This document shows positions 3,690 through 27,357 of a stretch of DNA of 64,000 bases, in pieces. Made by a program: the position numbers and the translations under genes. The first letter of the stretch is position 1; every line of letters begins with the position of its first letter. Where the stretch lies: assembly GCA_963745835.1 (NCBI GenBank), contig CAVUZH010000015.1, positions 64,001 through 128,000 of the forward strand. The letters are read 5' to 3'. This DNA is from an uncultured delta proteobacterium. GTDB lineage: Bacteria; Desulfobacterota; Binatia; UBA9968. Under the pieces are notes generated by a model that made no database searches, had not been told where the DNA came from, and saw only the letters and a program-made list of their open reading frames with translations.

Positions 3690-5396
3690 ATGGAGCTGAC
3701 TCAAGTCGGCGTTGCTGCGCGCTGGCGCGCAGGCGTAGACTGGTGGCAAAACGGCATTCTTCTAGTGCTGCTGGTCATTCTCACGGCGTTTATTCTTTAC
3801 CCGGTCTTGAGTGTCCTGTGGATCTCGCTTTCCGATGATCAAGGCAGCCTGACCTTTATTCACTTCGCTAATTTCTTTCATCGCCCGCTTTTTCGCGAGG
3901 CCTTGTGGAACACCTTGCTCAGCGGCGCTCTGGTGGTTTTGTTTGGCGCGCTTTTGGGAGTTCCGCTGGCTTACATCATCGCGCGTTATGATTTTAGGGG
4001 GAAACTGTTACTGCAAACCGCGGCGACTCTCCCTTTGGTGGTGCCGCCGTTTGTTGGCGCGGTGGCGCTGCAGCTGATTCTGGGTCGCAGCGGCATGGTC
4101 AACCTGCTCCTGATGAGCTGGTTCGATACCACGATTCCTTTTATGGAAGGGTTGACCGGCGTCATTCTCGTGCAAACCTTGCACTTCTTCCCATTCATTT
4201 TACTCAACACGGTTGTGTCGCTGTCGAACGTCGACTCCTCTCTCGAAGAGGCGGCGCAAAACCTCGGCTGTAAGGGTGTTCGCCTTTTCCGGCGCGTGAC
4301 CCTGCCGTTGATGCTTCCCGGCTTTACCGCCGGCGCTCTCCTGACGTTTATTCGAGCGATCGACGATCTGGGCACGCCGTTGATGCTGAACTACAAGAAC
4401 CTGCTCGCGCCCCAGGCTTACCTGAGAATCACGACCATCGGCATGGACGACGTCGACGGCTATGTCGTCTGCGTCGTGCTGGTGGTGATTTCTCTGGCTT
4501 CGCTGCTGGCGGCCCGCAAGTATCTAAGCCTCGCCGAATACGCCACCGTGCAGCGCTCCGCTTCCAGCGCCAAGCCGCTCTACGGCAAAAGGCTGGCGCT
4601 CGTCTGGCTGATCAGCGCGCTCATTTTGGCCGTGAGCCTGTTGCCTCACATCGGCATCGTTTTGCTGTCGTTCTCCAAGATCTGGAGCTTTACGCTGCTG
4701 CCGTCCACGTATACGTTGGACAACTATGCGGATATTTTTTTTCGAGTGCCTCACTTCGTGGTCAACACGTTGATCTATACTATCCTCGCGGCAACGCTCG
4801 ATGTGATTCTTGGCGCCGTGATCGCGTTCCTGCTGTTGCGCAGTCGGGTGCGGGGAAGGAATGTTCTTGACGCCATCGCGACGATGCCGCTGGCGATTCC
4901 AGGCGTGGTTCTCGCTGTCGGCTATCTGCGCGTTTTTCACGGGTGGGATTTCCCCGGAATCGGCGCGCCGTTGACCTCATCCTGGCTGATTCTGGTGATC
5001 GCTTACACGATGCGGCGACTGCCCTACACCGTGCGCGCCAGCTACGCCGCTCTCCAACAAGTTCATGTCACTCTCGAAGAATCGGCGCAAAGTCTCGGAG
5101 CGAACCGGTTTGGCACTTTCAGGAAAATTACCCTGCCGATGATCACCGGAGGTTTGCTGGCCGGCGGATTGATCGCTTTCGTCACTTCATCCGTGGAGCT
5201 CGCATCCACTATCATGCTCGTGCCGCGGATTGAATTGGGACCGATTTCCTATGGGATTTACCTGTACATGCAGAGCCCGCTCGGCCGGGGCGCGGGCGCT
5301 GCGCTGGGAGTGATAGCGATTCTATTAGTGGCTATCGGAACTTATCTGACGCACCGAATCTTCGGCGGCCGCGCCGGTAACGCTTTTCGTATCTGA
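3690..5396 (+). CDS. Fe(III)-type ABC transporter permease with duplicated EAA loops
   Basis: About 12 TM segments; LEEAAQNLG and LEESAQSLGA. Confidence 0.92.
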   Translation: MELTQVGVAARWRAGVDWWQNGILLVLLVILTAFILYPVLSVLWISLSDDQGSLTFIHFANFFHRPLFREALWNTLLSGALVVLFGALLGVPLAYIIARYDFRGKLLLQTAATLPLVVPPFVGAVALQLILGRSGMVNLLLMSWFDTTIPFMEGLTGVILVQTLHFFPFILLNTVVSLSNVDSSLEEAAQNLGCKGVRLFRRVTLPLMLPGFTAGALLTFIRAIDDLGTPLMLNYKNLLAPQAYLRITTIGMDDVDGYVVCVVLVVISLASLLAARKYLSLAEYATVQRSASSAKPLYGKRLALVWLISALILAVSLLPHIGIVLLSFSKIWSFTLLPSTYTLDNYADIFFRVPHFVVNTLIYTILAATLDVILGAVIAFLLLRSRVRGRNVLDAIATMPLAIPGVVLAVGYLRVFHGWDFPGIGAPLTSSWLILVIAYTMRRLPYTVRASYAALQQVHVTLEESAQSLGANRFGTFRKITLPMITGGLLAGGLIAFVTSSVELASTIMLVPRIELGPISYGIYLYMQSPLGRGAGAALGVIAILLVAIGTYLTHRIFGGRAGNAFRI

Positions 5397-5397
5397 C

Positions 5398-6491
5398 ATG
5401 CAAGCGGCTAGTGTCAGACTGGAAAATGTCGGAAAACGTTACGGCGATCACTGGGTAGTTTGCAGTGTCACCCTGGATATCAAGCAGGGAGAGTTCTTCA
5501 CCTTTCTCGGACCCAGCGGCTGCGGCAAAACGACCTTGTTGCGGATCGTTGCGGGATTTGTTGCATCCGACCAGGGGGTCGTCTATTTGGACGACCAACC
5601 GATGAACCATGTGCCGCCCTGGCGCCGGGACATCGGCCTGGTTTTTCAAAACTATGCCCTGTGGCCGCACCTGAGCGTCTTCGAGAACGTCGCCTTCGGT
5701 TTGAGAGAACGGAAAGTTGCGCGCGGCGAGATCGAGCGCCGCGTCGCTGCGGCTCTCAAGCAAGTTGATCTTGCCAGGAGCTGAGAAACGACGTCCATCA
5801 CAGCTTTCCGGCGGCCAACAGCAAAGAGTCGCTCTGGCGCGCACACTGGTGATCCAGCCGCGAGTGCTGCTTCTTGACGAGCCTCTCAGCAATCTTGACG
5901 CTAAACTGCGCATAGAAATGCGCCTAGAGCTGCTCAAGCTGCAACGGGACCTCGGGCTGACGACGATTTATGTGACGCATGATCAGGAGGAAGCTTTAGC
6001 CATGTCGACCCGCATCGCCGTTATGAGGGACGGCAAGGTCATACAACAAGGTAAGCCGCGCGAGATCTACGAGCAACCCGCCGATAAATTTGTCGCGGCA
6101 TTTTTGGGGCATGCCAATCTATTTTCAGGTCAAGTCATCTCCTCCGGCGAGGGGTCGATCGACGTTGATGTCGGCGGCGGCCTCGCCATACGCGCCGGCC
6201 GCGTGACGGCCTCGATTCCTCCTAGAGGTAGAAAGGCTCTTTCTCAGTGTTCGTCCCGAGGCCGTCGAGCTCCAGGAGATCGGCAAGGTTTGCAACGGCG
6301 TCAATCACATCAAAGGACACGTGATCGCGGCTGCGTACCGAGGATCGCTTATCGAATATGAGATTGCTGCCGGTGATCACGCCATCAAAGCTCACGTCGT
6401 CAATCCCAAGGGAAAACCCTTGTTTGAACGAAATCAGCCAGTGTGCCTCCGCTTCGCTCCCGAGGATGTAACTTTAGTCAGCGGTGATTGA
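5398..6491 (+). CDS. ABC transporter ATP-binding protein (PotA/FbpC-like with TOBE tail), two +1 frameshifts (~5776, ~6230)
   Basis: GPSGCGKT in the first frame, LSGGQQQR and LLLDEP in the second, LSVRPEAV...[12 protein letters not shown] in the third; probably sequencing indels. Confidence 0.85.
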
Positions 6492-6633
6492 CAGCATCAT
6501 GATCATCACCCGTCTGCCCGGATTTCGCGGTCGAGTTGGGAAAGGCGGAGAAAAGAGGTTATGTATTCTGATGCGCCTGGCTTGATGCCGCCCAGGGCCA
6601 AAGACGAAATTCCAAAGCTTAGGCTGGGATCCT

Positions 6634-7242
6634 ATGAAAAAACGAAAATACCTTTTGATAGTGCCATTCACTGTGGTGTTCATCTCAGCCATATCGGCGT
6701 TGATTTACACCCAAAGATTCGCCCAAGAGGCGGCAATTCTAAAAATAAATCAACAGTACGAAAAAAAGACGGTAATAAAAACATCAACAATTCCCGGTGC
6801 CGGCAATGGATTATATGCGGCAGTGAAAATCAACAAGGACGAAATTATCGGTGAATTGGGTGGCCGCCTGGTTTCTGATGACGATGAGTCCCATGGCAAT
6901 CACTATATCGCATCAATCCCTGAATGTGCTTGGGAAAAAACTCACCCCTACAAGTATATCGACTCTAAAGAGCATGGCGGGCATGTCAGCCGCATCAATT
7001 TCGCCCCAAGCGAGATCAACGGAATAGCAACGCATCTGCAAAACGCTACGATCAAACAAATCTGCGAATATCCGTATTTTATCTATATTGCCGTGAGAGA
7101 TATCGAACCCGGAGAGGAAATCTGGTCGAGTTACGGCCCGGATTATGGCTACAACCACTTCATGAACATTCCCGAGGTGCGAGATTTTTTCTGCGGGCTG
7201 GTAAAGCTTGACTGCCGCGATCGATTTACCTTCTCTCATTAG
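6634..7242 (+). CDS. SET domain protein with N-terminal membrane anchor
   Basis: GAGNGLYA, SRINF, AVRDIEPGEEIWSSYGPDY; basic then hydrophobic N-terminus. Confidence 0.82.
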   Translation: MKKRKYLLIVPFTVVFISAISALIYTQRFAQEAAILKINQQYEKKTVIKTSTIPGAGNGLYAAVKINKDEIIGELGGRLVSDDDESHGNHYIASIPECAWEKTHPYKYIDSKEHGGHVSRINFAPSEINGIATHLQNATIKQICEYPYFIYIAVRDIEPGEEIWSSYGPDYGYNHFMNIPEVRDFFCGLVKLDCRDRFTFSH

Positions 7243-19151: not shown

Positions 19152-19760
19152 CTACAGTAAGTAAACAAACGTAAAGATCAGAATCCACACCAGGTCGACG
19201 AAATGCCAATAGAGACCGGCAATCTCGACGTGATTGGCGCCCCATCGGCCCTTGCTGACCAATGTCAGCACCACTGTGTTGTAGATGACACCACCGGTTA
19301 CATGCAGACCGTGGAATCCGGTCAGAACGAAGAATGTCGTGGCAAATAGATGACTCGAGAACGAAAGCTTATGGTGGGGCAGTGTCTCATGTATCAAGTG
19401 CGTCCACTCGTAGGCCTGACAGCCGAGAAAGAGCGCGCCGCCGAGAATAGTAAACGCCATAAACTTCTTGAACCTGGCCTTGTCGCCTGACTGGACCGCG
19501 GCCAATGCCAAAACCATCGTCACACTGCTGATAATCAGCAACAAAGTCATCAGGGCGGTCAAATTAATCCCCAGGACTTCCGAGGGCGGCGGCCAACTGG
19601 AACTCGAATAACGGAGGATCCCGTAGCCGACGATCAATCCACCGAAAGACATCGCATCACCGGCGAGAAAATTCCACATGCCGAGTTTGCCCCAGCTGTC
19701 GGGAGTCAAAGGCGACTCGGCTGGTTCAACTCCGGGATGCGCCGCAGCAGCTTCACTCAT
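19152..19760 (-). CDS. Cytochrome c oxidase subunit III (second copy)
   Basis: KLGMW, TGFHGLHV, GLYWHFVDLVW. Confidence 0.92.
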   Translation of the reverse strand: MSEAAAAHPGVEPAESPLTPDSWGKLGMWNFLAGDAMSFGGLIVGYGILRYSSSSWPPPSEVLGINLTALMTLLLIISSVTMVLALAAVQSGDKARFKKFMAFTILGGALFLGCQAYEWTHLIHETLPHHKLSFSSHLFATTFFVLTGFHGLHVTGGVIYNTVVLTLVSKGRWGANHVEIAGLYWHFVDLVWILIFTFVYLL

Positions 19761-20101: not shown

Positions 20102-20764
20102 TCAATACAGGTAAACCAATCCATAAAGAATCGGCCACAGGGCGACAACAAACGTCCAATACATGGCACAGACTTGCACGCCGGTGTGCTTTTGTCGTGA
20201 GAAGTAACCCCGGTTTGCTCGCACAAACACCAAAGTCAACCAGGCCAGCGCGCCGGCCACATGGAATGCGTGAAATCCGATCAAAGTATAAAATAGCCCG
20301 CCGTAAATACTGCTCGAAACCGTCAGCCCGAAGTGAATCAGCCGAGCCCACTCGTACCCTTGGATCAGCAGGAACACACCGCCGAGCGCGGCAGTCGTCG
20401 CCAACATACGTTTTAGACGGCGCATCGCTCCGGCACGAACCGAGCGGAGTGCCATATGCATGGTCACCGCGCTGGCAAGCAAAACAATTGTATTCACACC
20501 GGTGATACCGACCGGCAATCTGGGTTGAAACGGTGGCGGCCATATCGAACTGCCGATTCGAAAAACGATGAACGCGCCTATGAGCCCGGCAAAGAACATC
20601 GCCTCAGCGCCAAGAAACATGACGGTTGCGAGCCAAGCATTACTAGCAATTGGCGCATTGGGTTGCACCGGAGGCGCCGGCGGATCACCGCCGCCAAACT
20701 CGAGCCGGGTCGCTGGAGTAATCGGCGCTTCCTCGAGTCGTCGTGCCGTCGAAGTTCGTGCCAT
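20102..20764 (-). CDS. Cytochrome c oxidase subunit III (first copy)
   Basis: FLGAEAMFFAG, GFHAFHV, YWTFVVALW. Confidence 0.9.
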   Translation of the reverse strand: MARTSTARRLEEAPITPATRLEFGGGDPPAPPVQPNAPIASNAWLATVMFLGAEAMFFAGLIGAFIVFRIGSSIWPPPFQPRLPVGITGVNTIVLLASAVTMHMALRSVRAGAMRRLKRMLATTAALGGVFLLIQGYEWARLIHFGLTVSSSIYGGLFYTLIGFHAFHVAGALAWLTLVFVRANRGYFSRQKHTGVQVCAMYWTFVVALWPILYGLVYLY

Positions 20765-25300: not shown

Positions 25301-25678
25301 TCCATCCTTGTGTTTGGGGCAATGGGCAGAAAAACTTCAATTTAGCTAACATAGGCACCTGGCCATTTCAAGGGGAAAGCCGCCCCACATCGCGACGCCA
25401 ATGCCACTTTGCCGCGCTTGCTTTTGCTCCAATCCATGTCAGCTCACGCAGATCTCCGAGGCTAAGCAAATCAAGATGATCAGACGGCAATGGATTGCCT
25501 AGAAAAAATTTTAGAGCCGCAAACGGATTGGGTCACCGTTCATCGGTAGTATCGGTGTTCGGTATTGCCATTGGAGCGACGCTGGCATAAAGCGTGAGTT
25601 GAGTTCAATGAATGCTTCGATACCGCCGAGGCATTGTCTCGTCGCGAAATAGATCGTCACTAGCAGGAGAGCTTCACA

Positions 25679-27357
25679 ATGAATCAAAGTGAAACATTGA
25701 GTCGGTTGCATCCGCCAACGGAAAAGTTAGCGCTTTGAACCCGATGGGGTACCCGCCAATCATCGAACAACTGGGTATGGCGCCGCGGTTTGAGAGTCTA
25801 AACGACAAAACGATTTATTTGGTCGATGTTCATTTCGTCGATGGCGACAAACTGCTGCAACAGATGCAAGCTTGGTTCGCCGAACACTTGCCCAAAGCAA
25901 GAACGATCTTGGCGAGCAAAGCGGGTGTTTACACGGAAGATGATCCAAAGCTCTTTAGCGAAATCCGCGAGCACGATGCTGCCGCCGTTATGGCGGTCGG
26001 GCATTGAAGCACGTGCGCGCCGGCGGTCGCCGTGCATTGTATTACTCTGGAAAGCCAGTATGGCGTGCCGACGGTGGGTGTCCACGCCAAACCTTTCGCT
26101 TCGGTCGTAAGATCCGTCGCTTATACCAAAGGAATGCCGCATCAGAGGTTCGCCTTTGTCCCGATGCCTGTGATGGGCAAAACCTCTGCCGAACTGAAAG
26201 CCTATATCGACGGCATCGATCCGGTAACCGGCAAACCCTTAATGGAGGAAATCGTTGAGGCGCTGACAAGGCCGCTGAGCGATCAGGAGAAGCAGAAGAT
26301 CAAGATCGATCGGTCAACGCCGAGGCTGATTGATCCCGACAACGAGAGTAATCTGCAGCGTTTGTTCTTGGATAACGGTTGGACCGACCATTTGCCAATC
26401 GTCGTCCCGACCGAAGAGACGGTGGCAGCGATGCTGTCTGGCACCCGCCGCAAAGCGGATGAGGTGGTGGGCACGATGCGCCCGACACGCACCCGGGAGG
26501 GATGGCAGTTCACCGTGGAGAAGGTTGCGGTGAACGCGGTCATGGCCGGCGCTAAACCTGAATACCTCCCAGTCATCCTGGCGCTTGCGGCCTCAGAAGT
26601 CACGGCCCGACCGAGCACCACCACTTCCGGCGCCACCATGGCAGTAGTAAATGGACCGATCCGGCATCAGATCGGCATGAACTGGGGAATTGGCGCGATG
26701 GGACCTTACAACCACGCGAACGCCACCATCGGTAGGGCTTTCGGACTGCTGTCGCAGAATCTGCAAGGCGGCTCCGTGCCGGGCGAAACCTACATGGGTT
26801 CCCAAGGGAACAACTATGCGTATAACAGCATCACCTACGCGGAAAATGAGGAAAGAAGTCCCTGGACGCCGCTCCACGTCCAGCATGGCTTTAATACCAG
26901 CGACAGCGTTGTCAGCCTATTTAGGCATTGTCGCACGACGTCGTTCCAGATGGGACTTCGAGAAAAACATTGGCGCAACCATGTTCAGTATCTGCTTCGA
27001 GGTCTAAACCCACACACACCGCCCACTCTCATACTCGATCCGATCGTGGCGCGGCAATTTATTGATAGGGGCGGCTTCGATACCAAAGATAAATTGATTC
27101 AATGGATCTACGAGCACGCCACTATACCGGCCGGCATTTATTGGGATGATCAACTTATTCAAAACTACATTCACCCAAGGGCCGTCAAGGGCGAGGAGCC
27201 CTACGCCACCAAGCTCAAAGCGGCTGCCGATGAACTCGTACCGATGTTTCGCTTAGACGAAATAGAGGTGGTGGTCGGCGGCGGCGAAACCAACGGCTAC
27301 TGGCGAGTGATGGGTTGCAACTACGACAAGAGCGTCTCTATCGACGCATGGAGATAG
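25679..27357 (+). CDS. UGSC-like candidate selenoprotein: Trx-like UxxC domain fused to an uncharacterised domain; in-frame TGA at 26005-26007 and a probable 1-nt indel near 25725
   Basis: ORFs 25735-26007 and 26032-27357 share a frame: ...MAVGH-TGA-STCAPAVAVHC...; AGGAGA RBS before ATG 25679; C-terminal WTDHLPIVVPT, EKVAVNAVMAG. Confidence 0.82.
26009..26035 (+). promoter_or_regulatory. Candidate bacterial SECIS hairpin
   Basis: GCACG-T-GCG-CGCCGGCGGT-CGC-CGTGC stem-loop starting 2 nt after the UGA. Confidence 0.5.

Follow-up and report, generated by a model that had tools for sequence, protein, structure and literature searches.

Results

Two open reading frames joined across an in-frame UGA

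The DNA analysed here, called the window, is a stretch of 64,000 nucleotides (nt) from contig CAVUZH010000015.1 of an uncultured delta proteobacterium of the Binatia (assembly GCA_963745835.1). On its forward strand lies a gene that very probably encodes a selenocysteine (Sec) protein, consisting of an N-terminal UGSC domain and a C-terminal domain called Unknown_1. The gene appears as two open reading frames (ORFs) in a common frame, one of 90 amino acids (aa) with a TTG start (25735-26007) and one of 441 aa (26032-27357). The sole stop between them is the TGA at 26005-26007, residue 91 of the read-through protein, in the context AVGH-U-S-T-C-APAVAVH. The original prediction had joined the two ORFs into one gene through GH-TGA-STC, with correct coordinates. 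The features of the locus and related places in the same genome are listed in Table 1.

Table 1. Features of the UGSC/Unknown_1 locus (window positions) and of related loci in the genome (G000)
Feature	Position	Strand	Remarks
UGSC/Unknown_1 selenoprotein gene (predicted)	25735..27357	+	Start TTG 25735 or ATG 25744; stop TAG 27355-27357; read-through product 540 aa
Shine-Dalgarno-like AGGAGAG	25665..25671	+	Read in the sequence; 7 nt upstream of ATG 25679; region conserved in L022-L024
Ancestral ATG and 19-codon leader ORF	25679..25738	+	ATG out of frame in this allele
Missing-base site	25695..25697	+	Window one base shorter than close relatives
UGSC domain, residues 10-157	25762..26205	+	PF24696 and AlphaFold2 model; Sec starts helix 94-109
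U91-S-T-C94 putative redox motif	26005..26016	+	TGA 26005-07 very probably the Sec codon; Cys/TGA column in homologues
SECIS-like hairpin	26017..26035	+	Covariation and invariant loop in Sec forms
Unknown_1 domain, about residues 195-540	26317..27354	+	Motif match to Fig. S1A of PMC2398784; homology to stand-alone proteins
selA (608.6 bits), selB (394.3 bits), selD (383.4 bits)	G000:C22:65479-70161 (L001, L002, L010)		Side by side
Stand-alone UGSC genes	G000:C17:2351-3774, C17:15130-16355, C3:664148-665595, C3:315326-316652, C2:83954-85429		Each directly upstream of a stand-alone Unknown_1 gene
GrdB-family genes	L125 1501-2781, L126 1501-2784, L127 1222-2553 (minus strand); G000:C3:761351.., C3:675066.., C3:1196342..		

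If the TGA were a true stop, the locus would hold either two genes, one for a 90-aa N-terminal fragment and another, from GTG 26032 on, for a protein of 441 aa, or one gene broken by a nonsense mutation. Translation with table 11 does yield two ORFs, and public gene callers list products of 436-441 aa that start past the TGA. However, Pfam family PF24696 (UGSC) gave one continuous match to residues 10-157, crossing the TGA. In addition, the 25 nt from the TGA to GTG 26032 are not a spacer; they encode the peptide STCAPAVA, which is conserved in the homologue alignments, so the concern that the sequence at this place might be unconserved did not hold. In the AlphaFold2 (AF2) model, made from a 52-sequence alignment, the read-through protein is predicted to form a single compact body (mean predicted local distance difference test score (pLDDT) 94.8, predicted template modelling score (pTM) 0.92), which answered the call for a structure prediction.

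The UGA column in homologues

A search of 5.8 billion proteins with the read-through protein as query found 7933 homologues. Those of 543-569 aa covered 100% of the query at 60-64% identity, and those of 436-441 aa began just past the TGA (71-97% identity, 81-82% coverage). In an alignment of ten full-length homologues and four short forms, all ten full-length proteins had a cysteine (Cys) on the U of the window, reading GVGH-C-STCAP. One Cys homologue, 63% identical, carries the UniRef name 'UGSC family (seleno)protein'.

Among 41 related genomes, 10 contained full-length matches (covering residues 1-540), 12 in total, each with exactly one internal TGA; the 12 include a second copy in the genome of the window itself (C20:54536-56155). 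The TGA was at the identical column in 10 of 10 loci checked. One of the related loci, L026 (genome G012), is flagged as unpublished, and no count rests on it alone. Among named genomes in GTDB the motif was found in 75 of 80 returned loci, the remaining five being unmatched by the search pattern. The 76 motif sites in these 75 loci read TGA (52), TGC (22) or TGT (2), so that homologues carry either UGA or Cys at this column, which had been named as a check. Labels of the Sec-form metagenome-assembled genomes (MAGs) comprised Chloroflexota, Rokubacteria, Binatia, Latescibacterota, Gemmatimonadaceae, delta- and betaproteobacteria and Actinomycetes. Cys forms were found mainly in Alphaproteobacteria (Rhizobium, Neorhizobium, Bradyrhizobium) and also in Microbacterium album.

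An error for TGC or TGT at 26005-07 was considered, since the genome is a draft in 25 contigs with a contamination of 9.33 and its 5' region differs from that of relatives by at least one 1-nt change. However, 26005-07 is covered by contigs from four public runs on soil or rhizosphere, each of a different study, with no other letter listed there, and the TGA is present in all 12 full-length matches from the 10 related genomes. A sequencing or assembly error is therefore extremely improbable. The internal UGA very probably encodes selenocysteine.

Record L069, labelled Candidatus Nitrosocosmicus, holds a copy of 62% identity in which the TGA is of the bacterial type and the in-frame hairpin is the same; this copy on an archaeal MAG contig is probably a binning contaminant. 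A Hyphomicrobiales MAG (L117) carries two tandem Sec copies of the fused gene (2493-2534 and 4265-4306), directly followed by selA (PF03841, 552 bits; 5731-7128).

A SECIS-like hairpin after the UGA

A GC-rich hairpin beginning just behind the UGA had been proposed as the selenocysteine insertion sequence (SECIS). A hairpin is present, but the GCACG/CGTGC stem that was named is not the conserved element. The comparison set consisted of 52 distinct 42-nt stretches, from 64 Sec-form instances, and 24 Cys forms. The GCACG/CGTGC outer stem, which comes from the minimum free energy (MFE) fold of the single sequence, was rejected: 80.2% of its cells were paired, its pairs 7-29 and 9-27 were unpaired in 35 and 39 of the 52 sequences, and it showed no covariation (0.101 versus 0.110; 499 of 500 shuffles as high).

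The conserved hairpin sits 13-31 nt after the UGA. It has a core stem (26021-24/26029-32) closed by a GGUC loop (26025-28), a bulged C at 26020 and a lower stem (26017-19/26033-35). GGTC at +21 to +24 was invariant in all 52 distinct Sec sequences. Of the 208 cells of the core pairs 17-28, 18-27, 19-26 and 20-25, 207 were paired, and three of the four pairs had compensatory changes on both sides (in 1, 9 and 2 sequences). The complete 7-pair structure was 88.5% paired, versus 21-69% when the partner was slid, and its covariation was 0.252 versus 0.109 in shuffles, none of 500 reaching 0.252. An unbulged 8-pair variant suits sequences of the Actinomycetes type and not the majority (63% paired). 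The 60 nt after the UGA in the window have an MFE of -18.9 kcal/mol.

At the third-codon positions +18, +21, +24 and +27, the Sec forms had G in 51, G in 52, C in 52 and C in 51 of 52 sequences. The Cys forms (n = 24) had G11/C10/A2/T1 at +18, C15/G9 at +21, C15/G4/T3/A2 at +24 and C10/G10/A2/T2 at +27. The wobble positions are thus frozen in Sec forms, whereas they are free in Cys forms.

These data also bear on the TGA as a true stop. TGA stands at the same column in 64 homologue sites and Cys in 24 others. Because the TGA is found across phyla together with a covarying hairpin, a nonsense mutation would not persist, and a true stop is very improbable.

The stretch 25996-26037 (42 nt) formed a peak of depth in all four runs; depth in the bin 26001-26021 was 49.5, 10.6, 87.1 and 125.1, versus single figures in most bins. 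Many metagenome contigs match only 25996-26037 and then diverge from the window, indicating that the U-motif plus SECIS is a conserved element common, at the nucleotide level, to many different soil-metagenome genes. This piece was present in an RNA library too.

The start codon and a missing base

According to the original prediction, a Shine-Dalgarno sequence and ATG 25679 lie one base out of frame, with the base missing from the A-run at 25722-25725. The first part is right. The relatives place the missing base at 25695-97, in the alignment between 25696 and 25697, which is 25 nt upstream of the A-run: the window reads GAAACA-TTGAG, versus GAAACAG(T/C)(T/C)GAG in all three closest relatives (L022, L023 and L024; 95-97% protein identity), in which ATG 25679 is in frame (MNQSET...). 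From this alignment ATG 25679 is taken as the ancestral start. Metagenome contigs of X1, X8 and X15 have one extra base behind 25695 or 25696. Gapless contigs with the short allele were found in X1 (record 3) and X2 (record 18), each at a depth under 5 and one run possibly being the source of the window; the short allele is probably real.

Since the short allele is also present in metagenome contigs of two studies, the start codon used in this lineage is probably TTG 25735 or ATG 25744, giving a product of about 537-540 aa. The size of about 560 aa that had been proposed would then not apply here, as the short allele shifts ATG 25679 out of frame. The first residues conserved in the family (LNPxGYPP; LNPMGYPP in the window) lie downstream of both TTG 25735 and ATG 25744, and the frameshifted start would cost only an unconserved N-terminal tail. 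The leader ORF ends at TGA 25736-38, which overlaps TTG 25735 (TTGA); termination-reinitiation coupling may therefore take place.

The frameshift raises the question whether the gene is a real selenoprotein gene that is decaying or silent here, its function being carried by the intact paralogue on C20. The window is 1 nt shorter than its relatives, the short allele recurs in the two contigs mentioned, and the C20 copy starts with ATG and lies beside a gene resembling thioredoxin reductase (TrxR-like), a neighbour that the window copy lacks. On the other hand, the 540 codons that remain form an open frame with 95-97% identity to orthologues of the same genus, LNPMGYPP is retained downstream of TTG 25735, and the leader stop permits reinitiation. 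RNA-library contigs with 90-99% identity also cover 25663-25811 and 25971-26156; their weight as evidence is small, since they could stem from carried-over DNA or from a relative. Decay is, on balance, unlikely.

Selenocysteine machinery and other probable selenoprotein genes of the genome

The genome (7.28 Mb, 25 contigs, completeness 97.1) contains the machinery for Sec incorporation, which had been named as a check. Besides the selA, selB and selD genes of Table 1, a tRNA-Sec was found on C13 (74.2 bits; ARAGORN anticodon TCA), all four above their curated cut-offs. The selD gene has one in-frame TGA and is probably a selenoprotein gene itself.

Seven UGSC loci are present in this genome, each with one TGA; two are fused to Unknown_1 and five lie directly upstream of an Unknown_1 gene. 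The four stand-alone UGSC genes that were read have the motif GDUGSC, and all five have one in-frame TGA. According to the original prediction, the gene would mean that an apparently aerobic organism uses Sec. The use of Sec by an aerobe is not unusual; in this genome, selD and three GrdB-like genes have an in-frame TGA at the Sec position in addition to the seven UGSC genes.

The UGSC domain

PF24696 scored 72.3 bits (gathering cut-off 25), aligning residues 10-157 with profile positions 12-158 of 172. With this match and the Cys-aligned homologues, the assignment as a UGSC-type U-x-x-C selenoprotein was borne out. The GH-U-S-T-C of the window aligns with the GD-U-G-S-C of four stand-alone copies in the same genome. 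Both fused copies of this genome read GH-U-S-T-C, and fused Cys forms read CSTC. USTC, which had been regarded as a variant motif, is therefore the normal motif of the fused subfamily.

The AF2 model predicts the N-domain (approximately residues 20-185) as a beta-alpha-beta sandwich with a parallel sheet, in which Sec91 lies between strand 83-89 and helix 94-109. The best VIA-align matches to this model were CheY, PurE and B12-binding-like domains (Z 8-10.8). As modelled, the N-domain is a generic flavodoxin-like alpha/beta arrangement. Thioredoxin was absent among the 50 matches listed; because VIA-align there re-ranks Foldseek's own list, this leaves a thioredoxin fold within consideration.

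Contrary to the idea of a hidden gene, neither the gene type nor the architecture is new. PF24696 names the N-domain, and the pages of Zhang and Gladyshev (PLoS Genet 2008; PMC2398784) that deal with the family describe a 'UGSC/Unknown_1 fusion', seen in their Fig. S1A. In the same pages, 'UGSC-containing' is a major selenoprotein family of an ocean survey, with 255 Sec and 21 Cys sequences, among the most abundant there and of a function then unknown. The part of a 2026 review that treats it (PMC13188914) still counts UGSC among selenoproteins with largely uncharacterized functions.

The Unknown_1 domain

The proposed fusion to a large uncharacterised domain was confirmed: the C-domain had no match in Pfam or NCBIfam, and in the ESM Atlas it matched only unannotated clusters. 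The motifs WTDHLPIVVPT, EKVAVNAVMAG and HANATIGRA had all been read correctly; in family form the window has WTDxLPIVxPT, EKVAVNAVMAG, NHANATIGRA and AENEExSPW. Conserved residues of the C-domain are T217, D218, E262, N316, N329, R334, E370, E372 and W377. Its AVNAVMAGAKPEYLPVILALA motif matched the Unknown_1 alignment of Fig. S1A (PMC2398784), where the printed AVNGVMAGCRPEYMP... corresponds to AVNAVMAGAKPEYLP of the window. By this correspondence the UGSC/Unknown_1 architecture was already in print. The C-domain is 34-51% identical to stand-alone Unknown_1 proteins of about 350-370 aa. With HMMER, 4071 clusters among 1.84 billion representatives matched Unknown_1 at E ≤ 1e-3, making it a large unnamed family. 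Five proteins of 709-741 aa (P0175, P0191, P0203, P0229 and P0268) matched Unknown_1 in two stretches, best over approximately query residues 20-211, which suggests a tandem-duplicated half-domain of Unknown_1.

Modelled alone, the C-domain had a pLDDT of 94.5. A sequence search of the PDB with the whole protein returned noise only (laccase, E = 0.04), and the wide VIA-align search of solved structures with the C-domain gave none at Z ≥ 8. The best Z was 5.6, confined to residues 211-339 (about 130 residues; OmpA-like and FakA-like alpha/beta pieces). Class I fumarate hydratases, retrieved by Foldseek from the PDB with the whole and C-domain models at E of about 1e-3, were rejected as a fold match on template modelling (TM) scores of 0.16-0.27 (0.22-0.27 for the C-domain model) and root mean square deviations of 16-17; on the wide VIA-align search fumarate hydratase reached Z 4.6 over 192 residues. 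All these Z scores were below the level that the tool regards as chance-like. Judged from its model, the C-domain is without a convincing solved structural relative.

Genomic neighbourhood

In 75 loci, the closest ORF with a length of 100 aa or more was surveyed on either side of the gene (139 ORFs). In 18 of the 75 loci it was a same-strand Pyr_redox_2 (TrxR-like) ORF of 299-327 aa, namely in 11 of 51 loci with Sec and in 7 of 24 with Cys; as the survey is confined to the nearest ORF, 18 of 75 is a lower bound. Further neighbours were a solute-binding protein (10 loci), an AMP-binding enzyme (4) and a PhyH dioxygenase (4), and a MetE-like protein was among the neighbours too. With 272.8-315.2 bits, four of the flavoproteins came close to the TIGR01292 (thioredoxin-disulfide reductase) cut-off of 343.45 bits without reaching it; the one that follows the second fused copy (C20) scored 313.6 bits and has a CASC motif.

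In the window the gene is flanked by a divergent oxidase operon (COX2, COX1, CtaA, CtaB and two COX3) and by a convergent solute-binding protein gene. The divergent orientation to the oxidase operon, which had been pointed out, is correct for the window. It is shared only with three near-identical relatives of the same genus (L022-L024) and is not family-wide, cox2 being absent beside the gene in L025 and in every other locus searched. A functional link to the cytochrome oxidase operon was accordingly rejected. The operon itself has two separate COX3-family ORFs on the minus strand (19152-19760, 202 aa; 20102-20764, 220 aa), both downstream of COX2, COX1, CtaA and CtaB.

A weak local likeness to selenoprotein B

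A genome-wide search with PF07355 at E ≤ 1 gave five other places in the genome. Three GrdB-family genes (PF07355, 387-441 bits) stop at a TGA after ...ILTST or ...LFVAT. Reading through this TGA adds 80-92 residues to each, as U-G-T-S or U-G-T-C. They probably encode GrdB-like proteins with Sec; a cytochrome c oxidase operon is present in the same genome. When the UGSC Sec region was aligned with the three read-through genes by hhalign, a probability of 77.9% was obtained (E = 1.9e-5, 63 columns), with Sec on Sec. With the genes cut at their own TGA nothing was found (probability 1.7%), the likeness appearing only after read-through. The alignment hints at a possible homology of the UGSC Sec region to that of GrdB.

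Discussion

We conclude with high confidence, from sequence comparison, that 25735-27357 is a single gene whose product contains selenocysteine and belongs to the UGSC family in its long (fused) form. The correct annotation of the locus would be one selenoprotein gene of 537-540 aa, not two ORFs. The same gene-calling miss is widespread in public gene sets, where it appears as the entries of 436-441 aa.

Several results speak against parts of this interpretation and of the function proposed below. NCBIfam NF041046 (equivalog, 147 positions) scored 55.6 bits, under its cut-off of 125, so that the protein is filed under Pfam PF24696 and not as an NF041046 equivalog. The stability of the window's hairpin is nothing out of the ordinary (z = 0.14; an equally good fold in 107 of 200 shuffles), and in the window taken alone the GCACG/CGTGC fold has a lower energy (-15.0) than the GGUC-loop fold (-10.0); folding energy alone being uninformative here, the comparative evidence carries the hairpin. 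Rfam, at permissive thresholds, gave no family match in 25600-26300. No TrxR-like gene adjoins the window copy, and such adjacency was seen in 18 of 75 loci only. In the window, Ala stands in place of the Unknown_1 Cys that was highlighted in 2008 (MAGC); this Cys is present in 5 of 6 aligned stand-alone proteins, with Ala in both fused copies of the genome and in P0208. Finally, the likeness to GrdB is local, comes from a three-sequence profile and stays below a probability of 90%, and PF07355 had no match to the protein at E ≤ 0.1 nor to the locus at E ≤ 1.

For the fused selenoprotein the following mechanism can be proposed. Comparative and genomic evidence points to recruitment of SelB with Sec-tRNA(Sec) by the GGUC-loop hairpin, which would place Sec at residue 91. 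Sec91 and Cys94, at the N-terminus of a helix, could form a selenenylsulfide/selenol-thiol redox pair. NAD(P)H would reduce a dedicated TrxR-like flavoprotein, which would in turn reduce the U/CxxC pair, and the pair might pass its reducing power to, or attack, a small-molecule substrate bound by Unknown_1. From this analysis of neighbours and domains, we regard it as evenly balanced whether the protein is a reductase fed by the TrxR-like flavoprotein and acting on a small molecule in the Unknown_1 domain of about 350 residues. Somewhat more tentative, and short of even, is the wider proposal that UGSC and Unknown_1 form the catalytic core of an undescribed TrxR-powered selenoenzyme of aerobic soil bacteria. 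The Sec module of this enzyme would be a distant relative of GrdB/PrdB, the fold of its substrate-binding domain would be without a solved relative, and its substrate would be an imported small molecule. The remaining interest lies in the function of the UGSC/Unknown_1 pair and in nothing specific to this window. Cultured bacteria (Rhizobium, Neorhizobium, Microbacterium album) with all-Cys versions beside a TrxR-like gene offer a tractable route to it.

Comparison with known systems

In SECIS elements of the E. coli fdhF type, SelB contacts a G and a U of the apical loop, the upper stem has a bulged pyrimidine and the loop is located approximately 20 nt past the UGA. Like this element, the hairpin of the window lies within the coding sequence, has its GGUC loop at +21 to +24, contains one bulged pyrimidine (C at +16) and has an upper stem that covaries. 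Its stem sequence, in contrast, differs, and binding of SelB is putative.

In glycine/sarcosine/betaine reductase (Grd) and D-proline reductase (Prd), selenoprotein B acts on a small molecule held by a partner, and these systems are linked to an electron supply of the thioredoxin-reductase type. The likeness to GrdB/PrdB consists of a Sec directly after a beta-strand, followed by a helix and a strand with ...LE.x.G(I/V)PTV, and of a second, larger protein part with which UGSC would work. The TrxR-type electron supply is a further parallel, indicated by neighbours for UGSC and known for Grd/Prd. Unlike GrdB/PrdB (PF07355), the UGSC domain is much shorter and its partner domain is Unknown_1, for which no relation to GrdE/PrdA is known, although no search aimed at one was made. 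A pyruvoyl-forming site was not identified.

The closest known system is the UGSC family itself with its fusion, as far as it is described in the 2008 survey (PMC2398784). The function is unknown in both. Differences are the U-S-T-C of the window protein in place of U-G-S-C, the N-domain predicted by AF2 as flavodoxin-like where a Trx-like fold had been guessed in 2008, and the Ala that replaces the MAGC Cys of the printed Unknown_1. The window protein shares with the family and the fusion the U/C-x-x-C at the same column after the central beta-strand, and its C-domain has the printed motif AVNxVMAG..PEY.P of Unknown_1. The gene is an ordinary member of a catalogued, widespread family with a published architecture.

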